This document shows positions 1 through 47,902 of a stretch of 64,000 bases of DNA, one piece after another. The notes below the pieces were generated by a model that saw only the letters and a program-made list of their open reading frames with translations, made no database searches and was not told the DNA's origin. Position 1 is the first letter of the stretch; every line of letters starts with the position of its first letter. Source of the DNA: Escherichia virus TH44; the sequence record MT446415.1. One strand, given 5' to 3'. The translations under genes and the position numbers were made by a program.

Positions 1-133
1 CTGAAGATGAATGCGAAGACGCTGATGAAGGTCAATTTGAACCCGGTGAATTCCCTTTGACCAAAATCACCATTTCTAATAACTCTGAAGCCTGGACCGT
101 TTACCAGATGTTGAAAGCACACTTTAAGGAATA
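1..133 (+). CDS. 3' end of upstream ORF (partial), hypothetical
   Basis: open frame from window edge to TAA 131-133; acidic C-terminus; no family recognised. Confidence 0.3.
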
Positions 134-135
134 AC

Positions 136-7911: not shown

Positions 7912-7987
7912 AAAAAGTAGTGTACATCAGTATGGAGTCTATGTATAATGATTCCATACTGAGTTACCAAACAGACTGGAGAATAAA
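7912..7987 (+). promoter_or_regulatory. early promoter cassette (PeSL-like), type A
   Basis: aaaagtagTGTACA (-35) 17 nt TATAAT 7944-7949, then gattccatactgagttac...ctggagaataaaATG; inverted repeat agtatgga/tccatact flanks -10. Confidence 0.6.
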
Positions 7988-8143
7988 ATGAAACCTGCTC
8001 AATATGCAATGACTTTATACCTTGAAGTTAATGGCGATATTACTGAATTTTTTAAATTAATGCAACAGCGCGGAAAAAGTTTTGCAGTTACTGAGCGTCA
8101 ATTTTACGCTTGCCGTAAAAATACATACAATCGTTATGCGTGA
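7988..8143 (+). CDS. small hypothetical protein (51 aa)
   Basis: ATG at end of cassette, stop 8141-8143. Confidence 0.35.
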   Translation: MKPAQYAMTLYLEVNGDITEFFKLMQQRGKSFAVTERQFYACRKNTYNRYA

Positions 8144-9135: not shown

Positions 9136-9203
9136 TGTACAAACTCTTGGGAGCAGAGTATAATGCTCCCAGTGGATAATAAAATTTAACTGAGGAAATC
9201 ATT
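9133..9203 (+). promoter_or_regulatory. early promoter cassette (PeSL-like), type C
   Basis: agTGTACAaactcttGGGAGCAgagTATAATgcTCCCagtgg; -10 sits in loop of gggagca/tgctccc inverted repeat. Confidence 0.6.
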
Positions 9204-9548: not shown

Positions 9549-9621
9549 TGTACAAACTCTTGGGGTCAGAGTATAATGACCCCACTGGAGCACAAAACTT
9601 TAACTTACTGAGGAAATTAAT
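9546..9621 (+). promoter_or_regulatory. early promoter cassette (PeSL-like), type C
   Basis: near-identical to 9133 cassette: agtgtacaaactcttggggtcagagTATAATgacccc. Confidence 0.6.
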
Positions 9622-12101: not shown

Positions 12102-12130
12102 AGGACCCTTCAGGGTCCTTTTTTATTTTA
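12102..12130 (+). terminator. intrinsic terminator aggacccttcagggtcct + T-run
   Basis: GC hairpin followed by ttttttatttt. Confidence 0.6.
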
Positions 12131-12217
12131 AAAAAGTAGTGTACAATCCCCTTGTCTTAGGACATAATGATTCCATACTGAGTTACACAATGAATCACAA
12201 AAACTTTGGAGAATAAA
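12131..12217 (+). promoter_or_regulatory. early promoter cassette (PeSL-like), type A
   Basis: aaaaagtagTGTACAa ... CATAAT 12163-12168, gattccatactgagttacac...ggagaataaaATG. Confidence 0.55.
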
Positions 12218-26950: not shown

Positions 26951-27615
26951 TTACGATTCGCATGCCTCCAAATAACAACCGATATATAAATGGTAAATCA
27001 GTATATCAACTGTACTTATCCATCAAACAGCATTTTTCGGGTCGTTATGATATTATCAAATATAACTGGACCATGCGAATCTCCGATAGTGCTTATCAAA
27101 AACGTCGCGATAAGTATTTTTTCGAAAAGCTTAGCGATAAGTACACTCTTAAAGAATTAACGTTAATATTCATGTCAAACCTGGTCGCGAACCAGGATGC
27201 ATGGATAGGCGATATAAGTGATGCCGATGCTCTGATATTTTATAGAGAATACATTGGCAGACTTAAAAGAATTAGACAAGTATACGAAGATGATATAAAG
27301 AACATCTATTACTTCAGTAAGAAAGTCGAAGTCAAATCGCTCCAAGAGATTTTCGAGTATAATACTAAAGTGAATACAAGTTATATTTTCAAACTTCTCC
27401 AATCGAATGTTATCTCATTTGAAACGTTTTGTTTGCTTGATTCATTTTTAGGTATTATAAATAAACATGATGAACAGACTAACGACTTGGTTTGGGAAAA
27501 GTATTCAACCAAACTAAATGCCTATAAGAAAATCTTAAATATAGATTCTCTTGAAGCTCGTAAATTGTTCATCGAGACCGTTAAAAACTGTCAAATAACG
27601 CTTCAATCACTTTGA
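26947..27615 (+). CDS. 59: helicase loader gp59
   Basis: 222 aa; very high similarity to T4 gp59 throughout. Confidence 0.95.
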   Translation: MITIRMPPNNNRYINGKSVYQLYLSIKQHFSGRYDIIKYNWTMRISDSAYQKRRDKYFFEKLSDKYTLKELTLIFMSNLVANQDAWIGDISDADALIFYREYIGRLKRIRQVYEDDIKNIYYFSKKVEVKSLQEIFEYNTKVNTSYIFKLLQSNVISFETFCLLDSFLGIINKHDEQTNDLVWEKYSTKLNAYKKILNIDSLEARKLFIETVKNCQITLQSL

Positions 27616-27675
27616 AGTATAATTAATACGTAATCAAAACAACTGCTAAAAATCAAATAATCTAAGGAAAATCAT

Positions 27676-28587
27676 ATGTCTATGTTTAAACGTAAAAACC
27701 CTGCTGACCTGGCTGCTTCCCTTAATGCACTGAAAGGTGGTGCTGGTTTCTCTTCTGACGATAAAAAAGAATGGAAACTGAAAGATACTGATGGCGTCGG
27801 CTCTGCGGTTATTCGTTTCCTGCCTTCTAAGAATGAAGAAAATCCATCTCCATTCATCAAGCTCGTTAACCACGGCTTTAAAAATGCTGGTCAATGGTAT
27901 ATTGAAAACTGTACTTCTACTCACGGCGATTATGAAAACTGCCCTGTGTGTGCGTACATGAATAAGAATGACCTGTACAATACAAACGAATCCGAATATC
28001 GTAAACTGAAGCGTAATACTTCTTACTGGGCTAACATCCTGGTCATTAAAGACCCTGCTGTTCCGTCTAACGAAGGTCAAGTATTCAAATATCGCTTCGG
28101 TAAGAAAATCATGGACAAAATCAACCAGATGGTTGAAGTCGATGTTGACATGGGCGAAGAAGCTGTTGATGTAACTTGTCCGTTTGATGGTGCAAACTTC
28201 GTACTGAAATCTAAACTGGTTTCCGGTTATAAAAACTACGATGATTCCAAATTCATGAACCAGTCTGAAATCGCCGGCATCAATGATGAAGCATTCCAGA
28301 AAAAACTTTGGGACGACATGTCCGACCTGAATGAATTGCTGGTATTTAAATCTCTTGAAGAGAATCAGAAGAAATTCTCTAAAGTAATGGGTACAGCTGC
28401 TCTCGGTGGTGCTGCTTCTAAAGCTGCTGCACAAGCCGATAAACTGGGCGCTGACCTGGACGATTTTGATAAAGATATGGAAGACTTCACTTCCAGCAAA
28501 CCTGCTAAGTCTGAACGCACTGCGACTGCTCCAAGCACTCCAGAGCCTTCTGATGATGGTCTTGACGACCTTCTGGCTGGCCTTTAA
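27676..28587 (+). CDS. 32: ssDNA-binding protein gp32
   Basis: 303 aa; MFKRK...IRFLPSKN...[23 protein letters not shown]; acidic C-terminus. Confidence 0.95.
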
Positions 28588-28592
28588 TATAA

Positions 28593-28620
28593 GGGGACCT
28601 TCGGGTCCCTTTTTTATTTT
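28593..28620 (+). terminator. intrinsic terminator ggggaccttcgggtccc + T-run
   Basis: GC hairpin followed by tttttatttt. Confidence 0.6.
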
Positions 28621-28697
28621 CAAAAAGTAGTGTACAAGCCCCTTGAGCTAAGGCATAATGATTCCATCAACTACTGATAACAACTGAGGAAATAAAA
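28621..28697 (+). promoter_or_regulatory. early promoter cassette (PeSL-like), type B
   Basis: caaaaagtagTGTACAagcccctt ... CATAAT 28654-28659, gattccatcaactactga. Confidence 0.55.
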
Positions 28698-29060
28698 ATG
28701 GAAATCGGCAAAAAATATGAGTTCAATCCGCATCGTATTAAATCTTTCATTGGCATTAGTTCATCGAATGCTAGTATGGTCGACATCATCCAAGAAAATG
28801 GTGGTTGGTTTGAAGTTAAATCAATATCAAGTTTAGACGGCTATGATTATGTAACCGAAATCATTTGTGCTAATGGTGCAATCTATAATGATGATGGCAT
28901 GGGTGATGATTATTTTGAACTTAGTGAAGAAGAGTTTTATTGCTTCCGTGAATACTCCAATTATACAAAAACACCTTCGGGGGCGGTTTCTATTAATTGT
29001 GTTGTAGATGCTAATAACGTCGACCAAATCATTGAACTTCTACAAAAAGCTTTCAAATAG
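28698..29060 (+). CDS. hypothetical protein, paralog family (GK.Y / DYFELSEEEF)
   Basis: 120 aa; alignable with ORF 29410 and N-terminally with ORF 42428. Confidence 0.55.
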   Translation: MEIGKKYEFNPHRIKSFIGISSSNASMVDIIQENGGWFEVKSISSLDGYDYVTEIICANGAIYNDDGMGDDYFELSEEEFYCFREYSNYTKTPSGAVSINCVVDANNVDQIIELLQKAFK

Positions 29061-29061
29061 C

Positions 29062-29122
29062 AGTTTACAATGGGTCTATGGTTGAGATACTATAGACCTA
29101 TCAACTACATGAGGAAAATAAA
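29062..29122 (+). promoter_or_regulatory. early promoter cassette (PeSL-like), type B variant
   Basis: GTTTAC 29063-29068; inverted repeat ggtctat/atagacc around -10; gacctatcaactacatgagg. Confidence 0.5.
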
Positions 29123-29350
29123 ATGGCTAAGGTTAATATTGATATCGTTGATTTTGAATACACTTACGAAGTTATTCGTAATCGGTATCCTTCTTTGTGT
29201 ATGACTTACATTAAAGATACCCAATTCTTTAGTATTCAAATTGAAGTTCAAGGTCCTCTTGAAGACCTTACCCGCTTTATGCAAAATGAATATTGCGAAG
29301 GGATGCACCCGGAAGACGCTAAATTTTATATGAATTTGATTGAAGCTTAA
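29123..29350 (+). CDS. hypothetical protein (75 aa)
   Basis: ORF after cassette. Confidence 0.5.
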
Positions 29351-29409
29351 TATACAAACCAACGGGAACATGATAATATGTTCCCTCAATTGAATATGAG
29401 GAAATTAAA
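29351..29409 (+). promoter_or_regulatory. early promoter with hairpin-embedded -10
   Basis: gggaacat-GATAAT-atgttccc inverted repeat. Confidence 0.45.
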
Positions 29410-29784
29410 ATGATGGAAACTGGTAAATTTTACGTATTAGACCCTGCTGCTAAAAAACAATTCATCGCTGGTAGCCCTGATGATAATTATAATTCATGCA
29501 TGGTCAAGTTGATGGAACAGCATGGCAGTTCCTTCAAAGTCCTGGATATGAGTTATATTGAAGGTGATTATTTTGTTGAAAAAGTTGAAATGAAAGATGG
29601 CACTATCCTGAATAGTATGGGTGGACCTGATGAGTACTTTGAACTCGCTGAATGGGAATTCTGTCACTTCCTGGAAGTTGATGGCGATGCTCCTGATGTT
29701 GATACCCAAACCATTCATGTGCAAGTCAATCACAAAAATGCCGCAGAAGTCATTGCACTGATTAAAGCAACTTTTGGGGTCTAA
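29410..29784 (+). CDS. hypothetical protein, paralog of ORF 28698
   Basis: 124 aa; shared ME.GK.Y, FKV, EYFELAEWEF, C-terminal helix. Confidence 0.55.
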   Translation: MMETGKFYVLDPAAKKQFIAGSPDDNYNSCMVKLMEQHGSSFKVLDMSYIEGDYFVEKVEMKDGTILNSMGGPDEYFELAEWEFCHFLEVDGDAPDVDTQTIHVQVNHKNAAEVIALIKATFGV

Positions 29785-30040
29785 CATGACTAAAGATGAT
29801 TTCCTGGATGCAGTAGAAAAAGCAAGCGAACAATTTGAAGTAATGGGTGTACGAGTTCATAAAGACAGAAATTATGGTCTGGATGTTCAAACATACTCAT
29901 TATGGCTTGTTGGTGAACACAGTCTTGCAACCAATCTTGTTATGGGGGTTGATACTCATCCTTTATTAGTTAAGTTCAGAAGTATGGAAAAAGCCACCAA
30001 GGAAATGATTAAACTTGGCAAATGGCTTGATAAAATTTAA
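29774..30040 (+). CDS. hypothetical protein (88 aa)
   Basis: ORF overlapping previous stop. Confidence 0.5.
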   Translation: MGSNMTKDDFLDAVEKASEQFEVMGVRVHKDRNYGLDVQTYSLWLVGEHSLATNLVMGVDTHPLLVKFRSMEKATKEMIKLGKWLDKI

Positions 30041-30117
30041 AAAGTAGTGTACAACCAAATGGGGCTATGACATAATGGTCCCATACTGAGTTAACAACTA
30101 AAACACTGGAGAATAAA
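30041..30117 (+). promoter_or_regulatory. early promoter cassette (PeSL-like), type A
   Basis: aaaagtagTGTACAa ... CATAAT 30071-30076, ggtcccatactgagttaac...ctggagaataaaATG. Confidence 0.55.
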
Positions 30118-30357
30118 ATGAAATTACAACGTGAGAGCATCAAAGATTCAGAAGTTAAAGGCAAATGGTACTTTACAATCCAGGGTAACAATCCAGAAGC
30201 TCTGGAAAAAGCTGAAGAAACTTTATGTGCGATGGGTTGGAAAGATGAGTGTGATGGTTGTCCTCTTTATGAAGATGGTAGCTCATCTGGTTTCTGGATT
30301 CACCACTCTGATGTTGACCAATTTAAAGCTGACTGGAAAGTCGCTAAGAAAGCGTGA
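30118..30357 (+). CDS. hypothetical protein (79 aa)
   Basis: ORF at end of cassette. Confidence 0.5.
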   Translation: MKLQRESIKDSEVKGKWYFTIQGNNPEALEKAEETLCAMGWKDECDGCPLYEDGSSSGFWIHHSDVDQFKADWKVAKKA

Positions 30358-30367
30358 GGAAAATATA

Positions 30368-30705
30368 ATGCTTACTGAATACACTTGCTTTGCTAAAGAT
30401 GATGTGCATCCTGAACTGATTCTTGAAGTTAAGGTTAATACGCTTGAACAAAAATTTGATTGGAGCCTTTACATCTATCCTAAAAATAATATTGATGGTC
30501 CACAGAAATATACGCTTAATGACAAGTGCATTAGTGGTATCATTGGATATGGTACAAGTGAAAGCAAGTATTCATTAGAAGATATTCGCAATTCTCGTTG
30601 TGCGGTATCATATTTTGATACAGATATAATTAAACATCTTTATAAATTGGTTCTTGATATTCGCAAAGATTTTACTGCCGTTAAAAAGGCAGTTAAGGAA
30701 TTAAA

Positions 30706-30709
<4 letters not shown>
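30368..30709 (+). CDS. hypothetical protein (113 aa)
   Basis: ATG 30368 after gaggaaaatat SD; track ORF 30131 is an upstream extension overlapping previous gene. Confidence 0.5.
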
Positions 30710-32370
<1,661 letters not shown>

Positions 32371-37177: not shown

Positions 37178-38310
37178 TTGAATTATATGATAACTTAATG
37201 AAGCTTTGCGCCGAATCCGATAAAGGTAAGTTTTTCTATACGGATTTTGTTTCTCCATTTGAAACTAAGTTCCGCATCTTTAGCTATAACTATGCTTCCT
37301 ATAGTGATTGGCTTCTTGATGATGCGCTGGAGTGTCGTGGTATTATGTTTGAAATGGATGCTAATGGCCCAGTTCGCATTGCCGCCCGTCCTATGGAAAA
37401 ATTCTTTAATCTGGGTGAGAATCCAATGACCATGGACCTTAACCTTGATGAGGTTGTCCTGGTTACTGCAAAAGCTGATGGTAGTTTGGTTTCTACTTAT
37501 ATGGACCAGACTAATATCGCCTTTAAATCCAAAGGGTCAATCAAAAGCTCCCAGGCTGCTGAATCCTTGCAGGTGTTTAAACAAGAGCATCGCAGTGCAT
37601 TCAGGGCTCGCGTAACTGAAATCACTGAAGCTGGTTATACATGCAATATGGAATATGTTGCACCAACCAACCGCATTGTTTTGCCTTACCAGGAACGTGA
37701 CCTGATTTTACTGAACGTTCGTCATAATGAAACGGGCGAATATATTCCTTATCAGGAACTGTTCAAAGATGCTGCACTCCGTCCTTTCCTGGTTGAAGCA
37801 TATGACCCGGCGAGCATTGAGAATGTTCGTGGTATGAAAGAGATTGAAGGCTTCGTCTACGAGTTGGCAAGTGGTCAGAAGTTCAAGATGAAAACAGAAT
37901 GGTATTGTGCTCTGCATCATACTAAAGACTCCATTAATAATAATGAGCGACTGTTTGAAGTTGTTGTTGCTGGCGGGGCAGATGATGTTATTGCCATGTT
38001 TACTGGCGATAATTATGCTCGCGAAAAAGTTAATGCCTTTACTGTAACGCATCTGGATTATCTGTCCAATACGCTGGGATTGTTGCTTGATGCTCAGAAA
38101 CAATTGGCAGGAAAAGACCGTCGCGAGTTTGCGATTAAAGGTCAAGAGTTGTGCAAACCATACCCGGGATTGTTCTCCGTATTAATGAACACCTATCAAC
38201 GCCCACAGGAAACTGAACAAACGATTGCTCAAATCAATAAAGTTTTCCTTAAAAATCATAAACTTTACATTCCGTCGGACTACCAAGCGGAAGTAATCCT
38301 TCCTGAATAA
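37174..38310 (+). CDS. rnlA: RNA ligase 1 (tail fiber attachment catalyst)
   Basis: 378 aa; similarity to T4 gp63 (FRIFSYNYASYSDWLL.DALECRGIMFEMD, KEDGSLVSTY). Confidence 0.9.
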   Translation: MIELYDNLMKLCAESDKGKFFYTDFVSPFETKFRIFSYNYASYSDWLLDDALECRGIMFEMDANGPVRIAARPMEKFFNLGENPMTMDLNLDEVVLVTAKADGSLVSTYMDQTNIAFKSKGSIKSSQAAESLQVFKQEHRSAFRARVTEITEAGYTCNMEYVAPTNRIVLPYQERDLILLNVRHNETGEYIPYQELFKDAALRPFLVEAYDPASIENVRGMKEIEGFVYELASGQKFKMKTEWYCALHHTKDSINNNERLFEVVVAGGADDVIAMFTGDNYAREKVNAFTVTHLDYLSNTLGLLLDAQKQLAGKDRREFAIKGQELCKPYPGLFSVLMNTYQRPQETEQTIAQINKVFLKNHKLYIPSDYQAEVILPE

Positions 38311-38315
38311 TAAAA

Positions 38316-38381
38316 AAGGGGTGTACAAGCCCCTTCTTTCTATACATAATGGTTCCATCAACTACTGATGAGGACCAAAAC
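38316..38381 (+). promoter_or_regulatory. terminator-promoter composite (PeSL-like, type B)
   Basis: hairpin aagggg-tgtacaag-cccctt holds the -35 in its loop; CATAAT 38345-38350; ggttccatcaactactgatgagg. Confidence 0.5.
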
Positions 38382-39860: not shown

Positions 39861-39929
39861 AAAGTAGTGTACAAACTTATGGGAGCAGAGTATAATGCTC
39901 CACGGATTATAAAATTTGAGGAATTGAAT
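39861..39929 (+). promoter_or_regulatory. early promoter cassette (PeSL-like), type C
   Basis: agtagTGTACAaacttatGGGAGCAgagTATAATgCTCCacgg. Confidence 0.55.
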
Positions 39930-42367: not shown

Positions 42368-42427
42368 GTGTTTACTTTCACCACGGATGGTGTATAATGA
42401 ATTTCATCAACACATGAGGAAAACAAA
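42368..42427 (+). promoter_or_regulatory. early promoter (GTTTAC -35, TATAAT -10)
   Basis: gtttac 42370-42375, tataat 42393-42398. Confidence 0.5.
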
Positions 42428-42970
42428 ATGAGCAATTTCTTTGAAGAAGGTAAGTTTTACAAATTCGTATCCGAAAATGCCAAAAAACGCTTTGTCTCCG
42501 GTGGATGGGCAGCTAATTACCAAATTGCTGGATATATCGGTATGACTCCGTTTGAAGTAAAGCTTGAGCCTGATAATATTAGCGGCGGTAAAAAAGTTTG
42601 TGAGATTCGTTTGATTGATGAAAATAATTTTGTGGATTTGGCAAAAATATCTGGTGCACAAAACAGGCATCATGGAGCAATGTTTGTTTCCAATGGTCCG
42701 TTATCAGATGAATTTGAATATTTCATCCAGGTAGAAGTTGGTGTTAAGCCAGAAGTTGAGCCCCCGCCAGCGAAACTTGCATCAGATTGGAAATTGCTTG
42801 TGGTTAAAAATGGCAAGATTGAGATTAACTCTCGTCATGTGTCAAAAGAGCGAGCGGAAGGCGAAGCAGAGCGCCTGTTAAAAAGTGGTACTGCAGAAGA
42901 TTGCTATATTATCAAAGGTGATATCACAAAAGCTTCTATCGTTAAACAAATAAAACAGGAGACAATCTGA
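42428..42970 (+). CDS. hypothetical protein (180 aa), N-terminus related to ORFs 28698/29410
   Basis: EEGKFYKF...KKRFVSG resembles ETGKFYVLDPAAKKQFIAG. Confidence 0.5.
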   Translation: MSNFFEEGKFYKFVSENAKKRFVSGGWAANYQIAGYIGMTPFEVKLEPDNISGGKKVCEIRLIDENNFVDLAKISGAQNRHHGAMFVSNGPLSDEFEYFIQVEVGVKPEVEPPPAKLASDWKLLVVKNGKIEINSRHVSKERAEGEAERLLKSGTAEDCYIIKGDITKASIVKQIKQETI

Positions 42971-46032: not shown

Positions 46033-46060
46033 AGGGACTCTTCGGAGTCCCTTTTTATTT
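46033..46060 (+). terminator. intrinsic terminator gggactcttcggagtccc + T-run
   Basis: GC hairpin followed by tttttatttt. Confidence 0.6.
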
Positions 46061-46142
46061 TCCATAAAGGGGTTTACAACAGGGTTGGTCCAGTGCATAA
46101 TGATTCCATACTGAGTTACACAATAAAACACTGGAGAATAAA
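46061..46142 (+). promoter_or_regulatory. early promoter cassette (PeSL-like), type A
   Basis: ggGTTTACaac ... CATAAT 46096-46101, gattccatactgagttacac...ctggagaataaaATG. Confidence 0.55.
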
Positions 46143-46511: not shown

Positions 46512-46582
46512 AACAGTTTACTTTGGTACAGGTTATGATATTATAAACCTGTACCAACAAATGAAAACAACTGGAGAATAAA
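46511..46582 (+). promoter_or_regulatory. early promoter with hairpin-embedded -10
   Basis: GTTTAC 46516-46521; 8-bp inverted repeat ggtacagg/cctgtacc around ttatgatattataaa; ctggagaataaaATG. Confidence 0.5.
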
Positions 46583-47467: not shown

Positions 47468-47680
47468 ATGTTTAAGAAACTGATTCAGAAAATTTTGGGA
47501 ACAGAAATGGTTGAAGTTACTTATCGTGTAACAGACGTGAGCCCATGGGCCCGAAATATTGAACCATATACTAAAACAATTAAAATGCTGAAATCTGACG
47601 GTGGATTGTCTATTAAAGACCGTCTACCTGGTTATGGTCATTGGGCTGATGTAGAGATTATCAGCGTCAAAGATATTTAA
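47468..47680 (+). CDS. hypothetical protein, tandem paralog 1 (70 aa)
   Basis: about 45-50 percent identical to next ORF (EMVEVTYRV, SIK.RLP, IISVKD). Confidence 0.55.
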   Translation: MFKKLIQKILGTEMVEVTYRVTDVSPWARNIEPYTKTIKMLKSDGGLSIKDRLPGYGHWADVEIISVKDI

Positions 47681-47689
47681 GGAATCTTC

Positions 47690-47902
47690 ATGATTAAGAA
47701 ATTATTTAAAAAGCTGTTTGGCTTGGAAATGGTTGAAGTGACTTATCGTGTTATTGATTTATCACCGCCATATGCTTGCGATGAAGATGCTATTAAAACT
47801 GTTGTTATGCGAAAAACATATCGCGGGCGGTCAATTAAAGAAAGATTGCCAGACCATGGCATGTGGTATGCAACCAAGATTATCAGTGTCAAAGATGTCT
47901 GA
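47690..47902 (+). CDS. hypothetical protein, tandem paralog 2 (70 aa)
   Basis: see paralog 1. Confidence 0.55.
   Translation: MIKKLFKKLFGLEMVEVTYRVIDLSPPYACDEDAIKTVVMRKTYRGRSIKERLPDHGMWYATKIISVKDV

Follow-up and report, generated by a model that had tools for sequence, protein, structure and literature searches.

Small early proteins of T4-like phages include a family made up of GoF and MotB.1 together with Frd.2, for which an 'LSm-like fold' has been described (Kim et al., 2025, PMC12152347). In the accessible text of that publication, the family is characterised by an N-terminal barrel with FeoA as the closest solved fold, by GoF and MotB.1 as structural neighbours and by non-essential early genes. 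The locus described here resembles it in its predicted barrel and structural neighbours, and its genes are probably likewise early and non-essential. The second relevant system is that of the PeSL cassettes, dispersed units that combine a sigma-70-like early promoter (published T4/PST consensus TTTACW N17 TAYWAT) with a terminator hairpin and an AT-rich tract, and that coincide with the points at which closely related genomes differ by an indel or rearrangement (Arbiol et al., 2010, PMC2839356; Comeau et al., 2014, PMC4122927). Here, we analyse a stretch of 64,000 nucleotides of Escherichia virus TH44 (MT446415.1; hereafter the window), in which an initial annotation had proposed a small paralogous gene family dispersed behind promoter cassettes and consisting of three open reading frames (ORFs), here called ORF A, ORF B and ORF C. 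All three ORFs exist on the plus strand at the positions listed in Table 1; ORFs A and B are members of the GoF/MotB.1/Frd.2 family, and ORF C is, on profile evidence, a remote relative in it. ORFs A and B correspond to genes that the record of Shigella phage SP18 already labels frd.2a and frd.2b, names that we adopt. The best explanation of the locus as a whole, and in our view very probably the right one, combines membership in this family with a module-shuffled gene arrangement and a proposed RNA-linked role.

The window derives from a T4-like coliphage belonging to Gaprivervirus (SP18/VR20/CJ20 group); over positions 27600-31000, its identity is 96.9% with phage CJ20 and 96.6% with SP18. 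The sequence motifs on which the initial annotation was built are present (MEIGKKY and METGKFY, and DYFELSEEEFYCF and EYFELAEWEFCHF, in the pair; EEGKFYKF..AKKRFVSGG in ORF C), and ORFs A and B align over their full length as had been claimed, with 32% amino acid identity (BLASTP E=6e-17; phmmer E=1e-13 in a search of all 421 window ORFs). When compared to a shuffled background, the Smith-Waterman score of the pair is 142 for a mean of 28.1 and a standard deviation of 4.8 (z=23.6), a score reached by 0 of 2000 shuffles, so the pair clearly passes the shuffling check that the initial annotation had named. Both proteins match the Pfam family FRD2 (PF03197) with 121.9 bits for ORF A and 113.7 bits for ORF B, the gathering cut-off being 29, and both are assigned to phrog_622, which also contains T4 goF according to the accessible annotation table of the CRISPRi-ART study (PMC11879866). 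ORFs A and B are thus true paralogues. Both are acidic proteins with an isoelectric point of 4.3-4.4, and each has relatives in other genera that are closer to it than its paralogue is: ORF A is 83% identical to T4 Frd.2 and ORF B is 78% identical to Frd.2 of the Dhakavirus Bp7.

The structure prediction that had been suggested as a check was informative for one of the two proteins modelled. The AlphaFold2 model of ORF A is confident (predicted local distance difference test, pLDDT, 87.2) and GoF/MotB.1-like, while the model of ORF C was too poor to be used (pLDDT 46.8). In the model of ORF A, residues 1-85 form a beta-barrel with two inserted helices (strands 6-9, 37-46, 49-57, 62-64 and 83-85), followed by an acidic linker of low confidence and a C-terminal strand and helix. 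A Foldseek comparison of this model with predicted viral structures returned 65 matches at E<=1e-3, among them GoF of VR7 (4.9e-6) and T4 MotB.1 (P39415; 7.4e-5); all named matches among the top 50 are from T4-like phages. The closest solved fold is that of FeoA, which is SH3-like. These structural results reproduce those of Kim et al. (PMC12152347), and the SH3-like barrel seen here is what that publication terms 'LSm-like'. It does not belong to the Sm/LSm (Hfq-like) class in the sense of an Sm fold with Sm1 and Sm2 motifs detectable by LSM/Hfq profiles. Based on the model, ORFs A and B are predicted to share the domain plan of GoF, in which an SH3-like N-terminal beta-barrel (about 90 residues) is connected through an acidic linker to a short strand and helix at the C-terminus; ORF B is assigned to the barrel family because it is homologous to ORF A. 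In an alignment, the C-terminal segment of GoF resembles the C-terminus of Frd.2. A sequence search of the PDB with both family profiles gave nothing under E=0.27, and NCBIfam and PADLOC models gave no match to any of the three proteins. For GoF and MotB.1, the accessible text of Kim et al. reports no confident homomultimer from AlphaFold3 (PMC12152347).

ORF C had been included in the family on account of a shared N-terminal motif. Pairwise, this similarity is weak between ORFs B and C (26 N-terminal amino acids, E=7e-4; Smith-Waterman z=5.8, 0 of 2000 shuffles, Gumbel p~3e-4) and absent between ORFs A and C, which show no similarity over the shuffled background (BLASTP; Smith-Waterman, 2000 shuffles). 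Profile comparisons extend it to the whole N-terminal domain. More specifically, hhalign of 31 Frd.2 proteins against the ORF C family gave a probability of 70.9% with a shallow alignment of the latter and, once distant ORF C relatives had been added, 92.7% (E=4.2e-7, 82 columns), the aligned region running through the EF.YF.E motif. Of 12 members of the ORF C family, 11 match phrog_622 (Frd.2) and goF PHROGs (best phrog_622 match, E=1.3e-7), and ORF C itself matches goF phrog_2980 (E=3.9e-8) and phrog_622 (E=5e-4). No Pfam match was found for ORF C at E<=1, which leaves it outside PF03197. On profile evidence, ORF C appears as a real but remote relative of the family through its N-terminal domain (residues ~1-105), with a C-terminal domain that, judging from sequence, differs from that of Frd.2 and GoF. 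Compared with the published family, its barrel would be longer and contain an insertion, and its C-terminal domain (~60 residues) would be unrelated; the protein (phrog_5804) goes unmentioned in the accessible text of Kim et al. (PMC12152347).

ORF C homologues occur in 91 phage records. Near-full-length matches come from Gaprivervirus (82-91% identity) and Dhakavirus (~45%), and a few Serratia and Erwinia phages match in the N-terminal domain alone. The annotation is 'hypothetical' in every record examined, and ORF C is described as similar to JS98 gp212. An exhaustive search of 1.84 billion representatives with the profile hidden Markov model (HMM) of the ORF C family returned nine cluster representatives at E<=1e-3, one of them a spurious repeat protein; neither GoF nor Frd.2 was recovered directly at a significance valid for the whole database. 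Within the window, which has 421 ORFs, HMMs of Frd.2, of ORF C and of the combined N-terminal domains detected no family member in the remaining 418. A 51-aa ORF at 7988-8143 was considered and taken as a chance match (E=0.046 with the Frd.2 HMM, 1.9 with the N-terminal-domain HMM). Separately, the SP18 gene labelled 'motB.1' (251 aa; 1667-2422 of the SP18 stretch) apparently carries the N-terminal domain twice in tandem (IEINKTYQLIEP... and IKVGKTYQLIED...), as seen by eye and with MAFFT only.

Presence and absence of these genes were next compared across related phages. The locus occupies the same chromosomal neighbourhood as T4 frd.2 and as frd.2a-frd.2b of SP18, between gene 32 and frd.1 and frd, with different gene orders: 32, frd.2a, frd.3, frd.2b-X, frd.1 in the window; 32, frd.2a, frd.2b-X, frd.1 in SP18; 32, frd.2b-X, frd.3, frd.1 in ECML-359 and Bp7; and, unlike the window, 32, frd.3, frd.2, frd.1 in T4 and RB32. 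Here X denotes a small ORF that follows frd.2b and appears to move with it as a two-gene module. Module swaps are seen in this comparison, and their junctions lie in promoters, transcription start regions or ribosome-binding sites (RBSs). The deletion of frd.3 in SP18 joins the two 17-nt RBS repeats at 29109-29125 and 29396-29412. In ECML-359, the gene 32 terminator and promoter match those of the window as far as CATAATGATTCCAT, just past the -10 region, where the two sequences diverge; at the junction of X and frd.3 the divergence falls inside the -35 hexamer, immediately after AAAAAGTAGTGTA, and the junction at frd.1 starts at GGAGAATAAAATG, a ribosome-binding site. At the second locus, ORF C is inserted exactly between the RBS and ATG of the counterpart of T4 promoter Pe133295 and cd.2. 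RBS repeats act as junctions as often as promoters or stem-loops do. This pattern fits the prediction of the PeSL model (Arbiol et al., 2010, PMC2839356; Comeau et al., 2014, PMC4122927), with the difference that several junctions lie in the RBS repeat and not in the stem-loop or promoter.

A second line of evidence for recent exchange is the mosaic structure of frd.2a. Its RBS and codons 1-86 are 93.4% identical to T4 frd.2 in DNA, compared with 67-77% for gene 32, frd.3, frd.1 and frd. The synonymous divergence (dS) to T4 is 0.28 for codons 1-86, and 0.89-3.3 or saturated for codon 87 onward and for nine neighbouring genes (including frd.3, frd.1, frd, pseT, cd and cd.1-3). Unlike T4 frd.2, the gene therefore combines a T4-like N-terminal part with a diverged C-terminal part, and the breakpoints fall at the ribosome-binding site and at the boundary between barrel and linker. 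On the most economical reading of these sequences, either a whole allele of the T4 type or at minimum the stretch coding for its barrel would recently have been exchanged by recombination anchored at the conserved RBS, beside a resident B-type gene.

We also examined the regulatory sequences upstream of the family members. Promoter-like hexamers lie 30-40 nt 5' of the ATG of each of the three genes, and early-promoter-like sites (TKTACA N16-18 YATAAT, which resembles the PeSL consensus given above) precede ORF A, frd.3, ORF B, frd.1, cd.3 and ORF C. Judged by consensus matches, the sites before ORFs A, B and C have the sigma-70-like promoter and AT-rich tract of PeSL cassettes. The claim that each gene sits directly behind a PeSL-like promoter is therefore borne out for a promoter-like site at all three genes, and for the full form with a terminator hairpin and promoter-like site at ORF A only. 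The site before ORF C is the positional counterpart of the T4 early promoter Pe133295 named in the T4 record, between cd.3 and cd.2, and its 17-nt ribosome-binding site is identical to that of T4. Neither the cassette before ORF B nor that before ORF C belongs to the dispersed repeat families D1 to D3 (Table 1). Such cassettes are generic and no mark of this gene family, because the plus strand of the window carries ~17 intergenic early-promoter-like sites, mostly before unrelated genes (at least 13 such genes). Generic sigma-70 matches in the region show no excess (17 found, 13.1 expected from shuffles), and the RBS motif ATGAGGAAAATAAAATG has 12 matches for 0.81 expected. At 8 of the 17 sites, the -10 hexamer lies within a perfect stem of 5 bp or more, compared with 12.8% of random positions (binomial p~6e-4), the longest of these stems being 10 and 12 bp. 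At frd.2b, a 6-bp inverted repeat (GGGAAC/GTTCCC) encloses the -10 and has no T run. In PeSL cassettes, by contrast, the stem-loop lies upstream. A hairpin enclosing the -10 is possible only in DNA or in read-through transcripts from upstream, and could be an attenuator, a processing site or a recombination site.

How the paralogues came to lie side by side can be read in two ways. The initial annotation had suggested duplication and dispersal by cassette-mediated recombination, which we take to mean a recent local tandem duplication in which frd.3 was caught between the copies, ORF C being a copy dispersed with its promoter cassette. The arrangement has the look of such an event, as 350 bp separate frd.2a from frd.2b, which point the same way and have near-identical RBSs, and cassette-bounded rearrangements do happen in this locus; recombination at regulatory cassettes is the part of the suggestion that we retain. 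The three genes themselves, however, did not arise by recent duplication. Between the three gene units, DNA similarity is limited to 16-22 nt of the RBS/start region and one 18-nt motif, the two Frd.2 proteins are far less similar to each other than either is to its relative in T4 or Bp7, and each type also occurs alone, B in Bp7 and ECML-359 and A in T4 and RB32. Among Gelderlandvirus phages, S16 has an A-type protein (60% identity) and the related UTK0003 a B-type protein (67%). Since both lineages also occur in that genus, the split between A and B is, on protein similarity, ancient and apparently older than these genera. Together with the low dS of the N-terminal part of ORF A to T4, this leads us to reject a recent local duplication as very improbable; ORF A would be better explained as a T4-type allele that was recombined in than as a copy of ORF B. 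More broadly, 887 phage records contain an Frd.2 homologue and 80 contain two, and B-type copies at 60% identity or more are found in 66 records. In the shuffling scenario that we prefer, the region from gene 32 to frd would be hyperplastic, with modules that each carry their own early promoter and ribosome-binding site; homologous recombination within short repeated regulatory sequences would delete, move or replace these modules, and would have placed frd.2a beside the resident frd.2b, the barrel-coding part of frd.2a having recently been exchanged with the T4 lineage. The recent events of this scenario are demonstrated by the junctions between relatives, and the origin of the arrangement, we infer, was of the same kind.

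As to function, amber mutants of frd.2, goF and motB.1 plate normally and GoF is abundant, according to the accessible text of Kim et al. (PMC12152347). The same source reports that GoF(D25Y), unlike the wild type, lengthens the half-life of a reporter mRNA with the 5' untranslated region of gene 41, acting post-transcriptionally. Our alignment places D25 and G84, the positions of the GoF suppressor mutations, in or beside two motifs conserved across the family, D25 just past the Phe that is invariant in the 'KK.F(I/V)' segment and G84 within the E.EF.YF.E motif, their counterparts in Frd.2a being I20 and Y81; these are the very motifs that had been picked out in the initial annotation. In the accessible data of the CRISPRi-ART study (PMC11879866), frd.2 is the only T4 gene of unknown function classed as 'Fit'. 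Because of the GoF genetics (stabilisation of gene 41 mRNA by D25Y) and the fold, we tentatively suggest, as a possibility still short of even odds, that Frd.2-type proteins modulate mRNA fate through RNA or through a host protein of RNA metabolism or transcription. Such abundant, non-essential early proteins might bind one or the other with their beta-barrel and so adjust mRNA stability or expression during host takeover, and their variable C-terminal parts and allelic diversity might tune this action to the host.

The same observations can be turned in other directions. The barrel might be a protein-protein adaptor that docks on Rho, on RNase E or on RNA polymerase, in the last case at the beta lobe, where CarD/CdnL, UvrD/PcrA and Mfd dock through Tudor-like domains, with different host targets for the paralogues. 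The discovery of goF through suppression of rho-mutant restriction (T4 record note) would agree with this, as would the acidity of ORFs A and B, which is unusual for an RNA-binding surface. Yet GoF(D25Y) works post-transcriptionally, and a GoF pull-down from uninfected E. coli yielded essentially GoF only, as far as the accessible text of Kim et al. goes (PMC12152347), so we regard the adaptor as rather unlikely. Exchanged alleles and patchy presence could also reflect an arms race with host immunity instead of general RNA metabolism, the proteins being counter-defence or host-range accessories. Consistent with this, alleles within presumed Tequatrovirus coliphage records (genus checked for RB32 only) fall into classes of ~78%, 49% and 35% identity to ORF A, the N-terminal part was recently exchanged between lineages, and the genes, non-essential in the laboratory, lie in a hyperplastic region. 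On the other hand, no known defence system is linked to frd.2, no PADLOC model matched (a weak argument, since PADLOC covers defence and not anti-defence proteins), and the presence of Frd.2 in nearly all T4-like coliphages (the 887 records above) is broader than that of typical anti-defence genes; we therefore hold a counter-defence role to be unlikely. More speculative still, and in our estimate improbable, is the idea that the barrel is a freely exchangeable host-targeting module, so that goF, frd.2a, frd.2b, ORF C and motB.1 (the last outside the window) would each have a docking partner of its own among the transcription and RNA-decay factors of the host, one example being the beta lobe of RNA polymerase, to which CarD/UvrD Tudor-like domains bind. 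The N-terminal domain alone would then be swapped between genera with its anchor at the ribosome-binding site, as suggested by the frd.2a mosaic with its low dS between saturated flanks.

Several points weigh against the combined explanation by family membership, module shuffling and an RNA-linked role. On the functional side, the reporter assay showed no effect of wild-type GoF and MotB.1, according to the accessible text of Kim et al. (PMC12152347). For T4 frd.2, the 'Fit' call has marginal values (score 0.83, p 0.027, 4 guides; gene 32 scores 3.29), none of the guide rows inspected is by itself classed as 'Fit' (PMC11879866), and the call conflicts with the normal plating of the amber mutants. 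The fold of ORF C, given its poor structure model, comes from sequence profiles only; promoter activity is deduced from consensus matches and position relative to T4; and the low dS of the N-terminal part of frd.2a could in principle result from nucleotide-level constraint instead of exchange.

PeSL shuffling is already published, as is the family (Pfam FRD2, phrog_622; Kim et al., 2025), the pair is already named in SP18, and we give the result little weight as a discovery; it is a correct but largely ordinary finding. What the analysis adds is a link between the family and ORF C, a divergent member whose C-terminal domain is of another kind, evidence at the nucleotide level that promoter and RBS repeats hold the junctions of rearrangements in the 32-frd region, a domain-level mosaic of frd.2a that indicates recent exchange of the barrel part between Gaprivervirus and the T4 lineage, and the mapping of both GoF gain-of-function positions to two family-wide conserved motifs. 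These additions could direct mutagenesis of the Frd.2/GoF family.

Positions of the features discussed are collected in Table 1. On the plus strand, the first block runs gene 32, ORF A, frd.3, ORF B, ORF X, frd.1, two small ORFs and frd, and farther downstream come pseT, cd.4, cd.3, ORF C, cd.2, cd.1 and cd. The small gene frd.3 is missing at the corresponding position of SP18 and lies downstream of frd.2b and ORF X in ECML-359 and Bp7.

Table 1. Genes, regulatory sites and repeats of the window (RBS, ribosome-binding site).
Feature	Position	Strand	Remarks
goF 3' end	3-134	+	last 43 codons and stop, truncated by the window start; fourth family member
gene 32	27676-28587	+	
gene 32 terminator hairpin	28591-28612	+	9-bp stem, then T run; stem-loop of the cassette upstream of frd.2a; repeat family D4
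terminator and early-promoter cassette (PeSL-like, family D1)	28598-28667	+	-35 TGTACA 28631-28636, -10 CATAAT 28654-28659; 86% identical to the copy at 12107
frd.2a mosaic segment	28682-28954	+	RBS and codons 1-86
frd.2a (ORF A)	28698-29060	+	120 aa; T4-type Frd.2
promoter-like site before frd.3	29064-29125	+	TTTACA N18 TACTAT; inverted repeat GGTCT/AGACC around -10; RBS repeat ATGAGGAAAATAAAATG 29109-29125
frd.3 (PF05798)	29123-29350	+	small gene unrelated to the family, between both paralogues
promoter-like site before frd.2b	29351-29412	+	TATACA 29351-29356, TAATAT 29374-29379; inverted repeat 29364-29385; RBS repeat ATGAGGAAATTAAAATG 29396-29412
frd.2b (ORF B)	29410-29784	+	124 aa; second Frd.2 lineage
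ORF X (phrog_4423)	29786-30040	+	starts 1 nt past the frd.2b stop
promoter-like site before ORF C	42371-42430	+	TTTACT N16 TATAAT 42371-42398; 5-bp hairpin in spacer; RBS ATGAGGAAAACAAAATG 42414-42430
ORF C (JS98 gp212-like; phrog_5804)	42428-42970	+	180 aa; stop codon overlaps the cd.2 start
repeat family D1, terminator and early promoter	12107-12176, 28598-28667, 30015-30084, 38289-38358, 46040-46109		70 nt, 5 copies
repeat family D2, promoter and 5' UTR (untranslated region)			83 nt, 4 copies
repeat family D3			57 nt, 3 copies
-10-enclosing inverted repeats	7927-7962, 9148-9171, 9561-9584, 29074-29099		
further -10-enclosing inverted repeats	29364-29385, 30059-30084, 39881-39900, 46523-46557		

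Rfam and tRNA scans of the window gave no matches. ORF X is found beside the B-type frd.2 in SP18, ECML-359 and Bp7. Apart from the family, the window contains two tandem paralogous ORFs of 70 aa at 47468-47680 and 47690-47902 (MFKKLIQKILGTEMVEVTYRV... and MIKKLFKKLFGLEMVEVTYRV...), the first 62 nt of which are 76% identical (repeat family D5).

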